From assembly GCF_017348835.2 (NCBI RefSeq), contig NZ_CP071375.1: DNA of 64,000 bases; one strand, written 5' to 3'. Every line of letters begins with the position of its first letter. Within the stretch, counting starts at the first letter, position 1. The translations under genes were made by a program, and so were the position numbers. Below, in pieces: positions 49,629 to 50,308 of this stretch. This stretch comes from Escherichia coli. Lineage in GTDB: Bacteria; Pseudomonadota; Gammaproteobacteria; Enterobacterales; Enterobacteriaceae. A model generated the notes under the pieces. It was not told the origin of the DNA, searched no databases, and saw only the letters and a program-made list of their open reading frames with translations.

Positions 49629-49644
49629 ATGGGCACGGTGCGGG

Positions 49645-49705
49645 GTGAGTTGTCGGATGCGCTTCGCTTATCCGACCTACAGGGGAGGATATTGTAGGTC
49701 CGGTA
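49645..49705. repeat. REP/BIME-like palindromic element
   Basis: gtcggatgcgcttcgcttatccgacctaca ... tgtaggtccgg resembles REP palindromic units. Confidence 0.5.
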
Positions 49706-49766
49706 AACGTGGTGCCATCGGGCAAAATTAGCTCGGAGTAACAGGTTTTGATTATTTCAGGAAGCG

Positions 49767-49945
49767 ATGGTGGTGGGGGAAGGATTACTCAGCGCTGCGC
49801 GCTTCGCCCTTCGGGTCGTTGCCTGCGGCAACGCTCTCTCGCTGGCGCTCGAGTCGAACCTTGGTCGAAGCTTCTCGTCCTTCCCCGCTTGGGCAGAATA
49901 TTAATTTACGGATTCGCTTGAGAGTTCAGGTACTTTTGAAAGTGA
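49767..49945 (-). repeat. tyrT-distal repeat unit (about 179 bp) carrying a copy of the tRNA-Tyr 3' end
   Basis: tggtggtgggggaaggatt at 49767 repeats the tRNA 3' end found at 49946; spacing 179 bp; corresponds to the repeat family downstream of tyrT (rtT/tpr region). Confidence 0.6.
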
Positions 49946-50030
49946 TGGTGGTGGGGGAAGGATTCGAACCTTCGAAGTCGATGACGGCAGATTTACAGTC
50001 TGCTCCCTTTGGCCGCTCGGGAACCCCACC
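49946..50030 (-). tRNA. tyrV: tRNA-Tyr (GUA)
   Basis: Minus-strand sequence GGTGGGGTTCCCGAGCGGCCAAAGGGAGCAGACTGTAAATCTGCCGTCATCGACTTCGAAGGTTCGAATCCTTCCCCCACCACCA, 85 nt with encoded CCA; promoter-distal copy of the pair, symbol assigned on that basis. Confidence 0.9.
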
Positions 50031-50064
50031 AGGGGTAATTCAAATTTCGAGGTAATGCTTGAGA

Positions 50065-50149
50065 TGGTGGTGGGGGAAGGATTCGAACCTTCGAAGTCGA
50101 TGACGGCAGATTTACAGTCTGCTCCCTTTGGCCGCTCGGGAACCCCACC
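50065..50149 (-). tRNA. tyrT: tRNA-Tyr (GUA)
   Basis: Second identical 85-nt tRNA-Tyr copy, promoter-proximal; symbol assigned on that basis. Confidence 0.9.
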
Positions 50150-50192
50150 ACGGGGTAATGCTTTTTACTGGCCTGCTCCCTTATCGGGAAGC

Positions 50193-50235
50193 GGGGCGCA
50201 TCATATCAAATGACGCGCCGCTGTAAAGTGTTACG
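50193..50235 (-). promoter_or_regulatory. tyrT promoter (-35 TTTACA, -10 TATGAT, GC-rich discriminator)
   Basis: Minus strand reads TTTACAgcggcgcgtcatttgaTATGATgcgccccgcttccc with 16-bp spacer, about 41 nt upstream of mature tRNA 5' end. Confidence 0.8.
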
Positions 50236-50308
50236 TTGAGAAAAATGAACTGGTTGCGTAATTTTCATCCGTAACGGATTAAAGGTAACCAGTTATTTTT
50301 GCTGGCGA

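Follow-up and report, generated by a model that had tools for sequence, protein, structure and literature searches.

The question raised by this locus is whether the tyrTV operon of this E. coli strain, in which a single repeat unit follows the two tRNA-Tyr genes and the start codon of the small tpr frame reads ACG, is a peculiar version that has lost a gene or one of the ordinary forms found in the species. The window, i.e. the whole 64,000-nt stretch of E. coli DNA that was analysed (contig NZ_CP071375.1 of assembly GCF_017348835.2), very probably carries the known E. coli tyrTV operon as a common natural copy-number allele, to which a lineage-restricted single-nucleotide polymorphism (SNP) has been added. 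The operon lies on the minus strand and is read here as the reverse complement; the initial annotation had placed it at the right coordinates and left the strand unstated. The interval 49590-50300 is flanked by narI (plus strand, ending at 49584) and by purU, and the annotated neighbours in identical and near-identical genomes confirm this purU/narI placement. The features of the locus, in the direction of reading, are as follows.

50227..50222 and 50205..50200, minus strand: tyrT promoter, −35 TTTACA, 16-nt spacer and −10 TATGAT (consensus scan, 10/12 matches).
50199..50191, minus strand: G+C-rich stretch GCGCCCCGC just after the −10 (sequence reading).
50149..50065, minus strand: tyrT, tRNA-Tyr(GTA), 85 nt (ARAGORN; Rfam tRNA, 53.4 bits against a gathering score of 29).
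50031..50064, minus strand: tyrT-tyrV spacer, 34 nt (alignment with K-12 and E. albertii).
50030..49946, minus strand: tyrV, tRNA-Tyr(GTA), 85 nt (ARAGORN; Rfam tRNA).
49945..49768, minus strand: single distal repeat unit with the RtT RNA, 178 nt (direct-repeat family D2; alignment to the K-12 units).
49899..49768, minus strand: RtT RNA, Rfam RF00391 (132.3 bits against a gathering score of 45, E 4e-27).
49878..49789, minus strand: frame equivalent to tpr (K-12 b1229) inside the RtT unit (direct reading, ORF lists).
49786..49768, minus strand: 19-nt copy of the tRNA-Tyr 3' end, AATCCTTCCCCCACCACCA, at the end of the repeat unit (direct repeats).
49603..49624, plus strand: intrinsic terminator of the convergent narGHJI, hairpin and T-run (terminator scan; narI annotation in PE164).

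Both tRNA genes give an 85-nt cloverleaf with a GUA anticodon and a long variable arm, the two are identical over all 85 nt, and both are also identical to those of K-12. The promoter ahead of them is the same as in K-12, and exactly one RtT unit follows them, so that three earlier readings of this DNA, namely two identical 85-nt tRNA-Tyr genes called also by ARAGORN, a promoter in front of them, and about one 179-bp repeat bearing a fragment of the tRNA 3' end, were borne out, with the unit measuring 178 nt. This unit begins one base past the CCA of tyrV, and the RF00391 match within it is full length (model positions 1-130 of 130). Direct-repeat analysis spaced the tRNA-Tyr copies 119 nt apart. 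Tandem Repeats Finder returned only a trivial 11-nt repeat at the locus, because there is one RtT unit and the tRNA pair is spaced in this way; the result is consistent with one unit. The narGHJI terminator forms the distal boundary of the locus, and in the minus-strand direction its hairpin lacks a following T-run. A REP-like imperfect palindrome, GTAGGTCGGATAAGCGAAGCGCATCCGACAA, judged by eye, is seen in the gap between the RtT unit and the nar terminator (49650-49682, minus strand), and it is common to K-12.

The tyrT promoter of K-12 is established to be under stringent and growth-rate control. Judging from the sequence, the promoter in the window would be controlled in the same manner, with co-transcription of the operon and processing of the tRNAs and the trailer. 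The one strong promoter would yield a transcript containing two identical tRNA-Tyr and a trailer with one RtT; processing would free the two tRNAs and, by analogy with K-12, probably also an rtT RNA of ~171 nt with a copy of the tRNA 3' end at its own 3' end. The K-12 RNA is described as stable and processed, with a length of ~171 nt, in a passage of PMC3318445 that cites Bosl and Kersten (1991). A link of RtT with the stringent or stress response has also been suggested (10.1101/2024.07.17.603846).

When the window was aligned with K-12 and E. albertii, it matched K-12 base for base from the first aligned position to the end of tyrT, promoter included, and its distal flank down to the nar terminator was nearly identical to that of K-12. 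The K-12 operon, tyrT-tyrV-rttR(-tpr) (b1231, b1230, b4425, b1229), thus shares with the window the purU-narI site, the promoter, the leader, the tRNA-Tyr sequence, the RtT unit ending in the 19-nt tRNA 3' fragment, and the distal flank. The two loci differ in the number of repeat units. K-12 (L001, NZ_CP047127) is annotated in the order tRNA-Tyr, RtT, tRNA-Tyr, RtT, RtT, RtT, and therefore has three distal RtT units, whereas the window and E. albertii have one each. They differ also in the tyrT-tyrV spacer, which is 209 nt in K-12 and E. albertii but 34 nt in the window. The K-12 spacer houses a fourth, divergent RtT unit (hereafter the proximal unit) besides the three distal ones, and the window is without exactly 175 nt of spacer, this unit included. 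In K-12 and E. albertii the 175-nt block is flanked by two copies of AATCCTTCCCCCACCACCAT, which are 20-nt direct repeats; apart from one mismatch, the 34-nt spacer of the window matches the final 34 nt of that in K-12, and the deletion junctions are clean and in register.

At the position of the tpr start, distal unit 1 of K-12 reads CCC ATG CGG GGA AGG ATG AGA AGC TTC..., while the unit in the window reads CCC AAG CGG GGA AGG ACG AGA AGC..., so that both in-frame ATGs of K-12 are gone. The upstream one has become AAG (49890..49888), and the annotated one has become ACG (49878..49876, minus strand) through a T-to-C change at 49877. The 28 codons after the ACG and the stop TGA (49791..49789) are unchanged from K-12, so that the 29-codon frame is open and 28 of its 29 codons encode the K-12 sequence. 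What the initial annotation had expected of an alignment with the tyrT-tpr region of K-12, i.e. fewer repeats and no ATG, was therefore found, and its figure of roughly three repeats in K-12 is right for the distal array, where three units are annotated; its ACG was confirmed by direct reading. It had recognised the smaller number of distal repeats and overlooked the short spacer with the loss of the proximal unit.

The E. albertii locus (L011, NBRC 107761) resembles the window in having one distal RtT unit with ACG at the position of the tpr ATG, but it keeps the long spacer and the proximal unit, carries two substitutions in its tyrT, and has a different distal flank.

We then asked how common this arrangement is. 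A 3-kb query consisting of the two flanks only was compared with 5,426 complete E. coli genomes, and the span of the match was taken as the locus length; 60 rows at even steps down the ranking were read, which makes this a sample and not a full count, and both flanks were joined in 48 of them. The locus lengths fitted combinations of tRNA genes, spacer and RtT units within 3 nt and agreed with the counts of annotated RtT features. Thirteen architectures were found among the 60 sampled genomes, with 0-5 RtT units and 1-2 tRNA genes. The K-12 type was seen in 13 genomes, and the type of the window (two tRNA genes, short spacer, one RtT) in 12, including one row with a query match 2 nt short. A single tRNA gene was present in six genomes, five RtT units in one, no RtT at all in one (L006), and other combinations in 15, with the flanks not joined in the remaining 12. 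The single repeat, which had been framed as a peculiarity of the strain, is on the contrary part of one of the two commonest architectures (12/60, against 13/60 for K-12). The tyrTV locus is polymorphic in copy number, and K-12 does not represent the reference state of the species.

Many complete genomes, independent of one another, show the window-type length of 710-711 nt. In strain PE164 the identity with the window is 100% over 771 nt of the locus and 3 kb of flanks, and O145:H28 strain RM12581 has the same architecture as the window and the same NarI protein accession as PE164. A 78-nt junction probe found the short spacer in ~17 of 30 sampled records, as judged from the match pieces of the 30 rows listed. 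The summary count of this probe, 4,523, was rejected as a total for the short spacer, since partial matches in long-spacer genomes had been joined to 100% coverage; the coverage of a whole-locus search suffered from the same joining and was replaced as a census by the flank-anchored query.

An exact 62-mer probe with the ACG gave 36 records; this is a minimum, since a copy that differs elsewhere in the 62-mer escapes the probe. The 36 records were mostly O145:H28/O145, with PE164 and a small number of other strains besides, and the majority have the unit bearing the ACG as their sole RtT unit. The recurrence in 36 independent records led us to reject a sequencing error as the source of the ACG. 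The same records bear on whether the single unit and the short spacer are an artefact of assembly in which tandem repeats were collapsed. Tandem 178-nt repeats beside duplicated tRNA genes are a classic site for the collapse of short reads, but a unit of 178 nt is shorter than ordinary read lengths or insert sizes, and the junctions are clean and in register. Moreover, the 710-711-nt locus recurs in independent complete genomes (12 of the 60 sampled), and the records with the ACG unit as sole unit include several independently finished O145:H28 genomes. We therefore regard a collapsed assembly as highly improbable, and take the architecture of the window as a real allele.

The repeat differences are the footprints expected of unequal recombination or slippage between direct repeats. 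One distal unit instead of three could have arisen by exchange between the 178-nt units, through unequal homologous recombination or replication slippage, and the same processes, acting on the 20-nt tRNA 3'-end copies, could have removed the proximal unit from the spacer. The su3 doublet and singlet of phi80psu3 are classical unequal-crossover variants of tandem tRNA-Tyr genes. One tRNA-Tyr gene and RtT have been lost at tyrTV in the supF laboratory strain OV2 (PMC12584984). Both cases resemble the window in that tRNA and repeat units are gained or lost via recombination between direct repeats, but the window keeps both tRNA genes and misses RtT units only.

Two of the sampled genomes deserve separate description. 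E. coli EC11 (NZ_CM169490, L006 1678-1881) has two tRNA-Tyr genes and zero RtT in a locus of 532 nt; since this is a complete genome, RtT at this locus is dispensable for viability. In the 12 of 60 sampled genomes with unjoined flanks, of which Nissle 1917 (NZ_CP171242, L004 1-5453) is an example, narI is not adjacent to RtT, and a gene cluster lies between RtT and the expected place of narI. It encodes an acyl-CoA desaturase, a member of the sterol desaturase family, a PAP2 phosphatase, an F390 synthetase-related protein, an MBL-fold hydrolase and an NAD(P)-dependent oxidoreductase, and looks like an island or a rearrangement at the distal end of tyrTV.

Other repeated or mobile elements were noticed elsewhere in the window. 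The rdlD antitoxin RNA family matches at 31599-31664 and 32134-32194 (plus strand; 83.6 and 55.1 bits, 535 nt apart), and the pair is a tandem ldr/rdl type I toxin-antitoxin repeat region. The corresponding region of K-12 has three copies, and the ldr/rdl copies may be another copy-number difference from K-12. The ALIL pseudoknot (RF01497), a frameshift-stimulating element of IS3-family transposases, matches with 120 bits at 17294-17410 (plus strand), which shows that the window contains an insertion sequence.

What the ACG means depends on whether tpr is a gene. If tpr encodes a genuine small basic "protamine-like" protein, the lineage would have lost it through a mutation of the start codon and would carry a pseudogene with loss of function. 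A database check identified the 29-aa Tpr of K-12 as AAC74313.2/PRTL_ECOLI, "Protamine-like protein", so the ORF (b1229) does stand in public protein databases; the exact 90-nt K-12 ORF is present in ~2,020 of the 5,426 genomes, and the 29-codon frame behind the ACG is still open in the window and in E. albertii. The other units of K-12 itself, however, do not carry this frame: distal unit 2 is interrupted by an in-frame stop at codon 6 (TAA) and distal unit 3 at codon 10 (TGA), and the proximal unit reads GTG in the tpr frame and then stops at codon 6. The RefSeq annotation of K-12 lists only the RtT sRNA at this place and no CDS. Our literature search for detection or translation of the Tpr peptide found no report, only mentions at the level of annotation (the Keio table, PMC2824493). 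A match in the CoCoNuT preprint was discarded as a mention of Tpr, since it occurs in a superseded version and is absent from the current text.

RtT units were further collected, each species being represented by one genome; the search pattern was anchored on the unit's 3' half in order not to select for the ATG position. The pattern matches were diluted by chance matches in G+C-rich genomes, and only ~35 loci confirmed by nhmmer, among the matches listed, were used. Among the matches listed, the 56 Enterobacterales units from outside the E. coli locus mostly stop at codon 6 or 12, and single-base indels across them lead to three different downstream frames (...CRRQRPEGR..., ...LPQATTRRA... 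and one more). An ATG together with 29 or more open codons is present in only 8 of these 56 listed units, whose peptides cease to be homologous after about residue 11. Across paralogous and orthologous units the frame is not kept open, nor are indels held to multiples of three, as would be expected of a conserved coding sequence. The ATG is kept in 39 of 65 units among the matches listed, yet it belongs to an RNA motif that does not vary, GGAUGAGAA, and the sole purine-rich stretch, GGGGAAGG, directly adjoins the K-12 tpr ATG with no spacing. The same columns also show compensatory changes of the RNA type, as described below. With these observations against it, the loss of a genuine tpr is very unlikely, and tpr (b1229) is probably not a real gene, the comparison pointing to a chance frame inside a structured RNA that is very probably translated in no strain.

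It could still be asked whether the peptide is made in the window from a non-canonical start, either the ACG or an upstream CTG or ATT. No ATG, GTG or TTG is found in the tpr frame, which is preceded by a TAA and stays open over the nine codons before the ACG; ATT and CTG codons are among these nine. There is, however, no Shine-Dalgarno sequence at a suitable distance, and to our knowledge ACG is no recognised bacterial initiation codon of any efficiency. Together with this inefficiency, every argument against tpr as a coding sequence applies here as well, and such initiation is almost certainly not taking place. The conclusion drawn previously, that the peptide is not made here, is therefore reasonable because no canonical start codon is left in the frame, but the comparative data argue against its premise that tpr is a real gene. 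Because these data speak against coding, the loss of the ATG is most likely a simple base change in a non-coding RNA; and because the frame has no sign of conservation at the protein level, it is likely that no peptide has been lost.

Returning to the reading of a common allele with a lineage SNP, the ACG would be one T-to-C transition, restricted to a small lineage (O145:H28 and a few others), which removes the ATG annotated for tpr in K-12. It is likely a rare lineage SNP in a non-coding RNA with little consequence, and we infer that the allele as a whole is without phenotypic effect. Apart from the 36 records, ACG is seen at the tpr-ATG position in the single distal unit of E. albertii NBRC 107761 (L011 1912-2043) and in both units of Enterobacter sp. 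Bisph1 (L010 2-123 and 180-302), so that the change is recurrent or old. Since E. albertii shares both the ACG and the single distal unit, the combination could be ancestral or imported and not a new mutation.

The RNA itself, on the other hand, behaves as a conserved structure. When the Rfam closing helix and the four inner helices were laid over 43 distinct units, 97.3% of the positions were paired, against 40-50% with slid partners. Compensatory changes were found at 11 pairs in the 43 units, and 0 of 500 shuffles reached the observed values. Ten of these pairs are in three inner hairpins, for example CG/UA/GC at columns 48-65 and CG/UA at columns 96-115, and the RtT secondary structure is in this way supported by covariation. 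A published analysis in which covariation supports part of the RtT structure and one helix is unsupported (PMC8250186) agrees with our result from the 43 units. The closing helix is invariant in sequence and shows no covariation. RNAalifold preferred to pair the 3' tRNA fragment with an internal GAAGGG over the 5' GGGGAAGGA used by Rfam, and covariation cannot decide between the two pairings because both are invariant; the Rfam closing helix, a modelled pairing, is thus unproven.

The T-to-C change would fall on pair U24-A118 at the inner end of this closing helix and turn U-A into a C.A mismatch. The pair is kept in 40 of the 43 units and broken only in the three ACG units, and the Rfam alignment marks the same pair as non-canonical in the window. 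The predicted fold has −49.7 kcal/mol in the window compared with −51.3 kcal/mol, a cost of ~1.6, and is otherwise unchanged. Compared with RF00391, therefore, the window has all inner hairpins intact and lies directly 3' of a tRNA-Tyr, as at every locus examined, and differs in this one non-canonical pair.

Several observations concern the relatives and the possible origin of RtT. The unit between the tRNA-Tyr genes is of a distinct proximal type (GGGUGAGAAC..., with the tpr frame ending in GAKRRIILPPPP). Copies were found at L001 1510-1641, L011 2209-2340, L080 2903-3032, L090 8235-8365, L115 2871-2995 and L071 54-183, and the type is conserved, apart from the distal units, in genera that include Escherichia, Citrobacter and Enterobacter; like the window, more than half of the sampled E. 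coli genomes have lost it. RtT was also detected outside Enterobacterales with 52-75 bits, above the gathering score, in Salinisphaera orenii, a Nitrococcus mobilis metagenome-assembled genome (MAG), a Halieaceae MAG and another MAG (L051 10558-10689, L041 539-676, L030 9182-9317 and L016 10183-10327). These copies lie just 3' of an 81-82-nt tRNA and 5' of more tRNA genes. Since RtT is thus present in Gammaproteobacteria beyond Enterobacterales, the element is apparently of greater age and wider distribution than the enteric tyrT locus. Within the window, the 5' arm of RtT, GGGGAAGGACGAGAAGCUUCGA (49865-49886), shows 82% complementarity to each of the two tRNA-Tyr genes over the T-arm and the 3' strand of the acceptor (49954-49975 and 50073-50094). 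Being complementary to tRNA-Tyr and to the 3' fragment of RtT itself, it could pair with either in the primary transcript. The unit also contains a T-loop-like AAGGUUCGA, and its sequence suggests that the RtT unit is derived from tRNA-Tyr.

It could also be imagined that the allelic series at this locus (0-5 RtT units, proximal unit present or absent, and the closing-helix mismatch of O145:H28) tunes the maturation of tRNA-Tyr or a stress or stringent response linked to rtT. We consider such tuning unlikely. If it were true, the allele of the window, with no proximal unit and one weakened distal unit, would give a low-RtT phenotype, and the combination of ACG and a single distal unit common to E. 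albertii could mark an ancestral state, not a recent loss.

This locus has been known for decades, as have its repeats, the rtT RNA and the instability of the tandem units, and the allele in the window has little discovery value in itself. The survey shows, on the other hand, that K-12, with its long spacer and three distal units, represents one of at least 13 architectures and not the norm for E. coli, and therefore comparisons with K-12 will routinely flag tyrTV. The behaviour of tpr as a chance frame supports the omission of b1229 from the annotation. Finally, the proximal RtT, conserved across genera and lost in more than half of the sampled E. coli, provides a natural deletion series for testing RtT.
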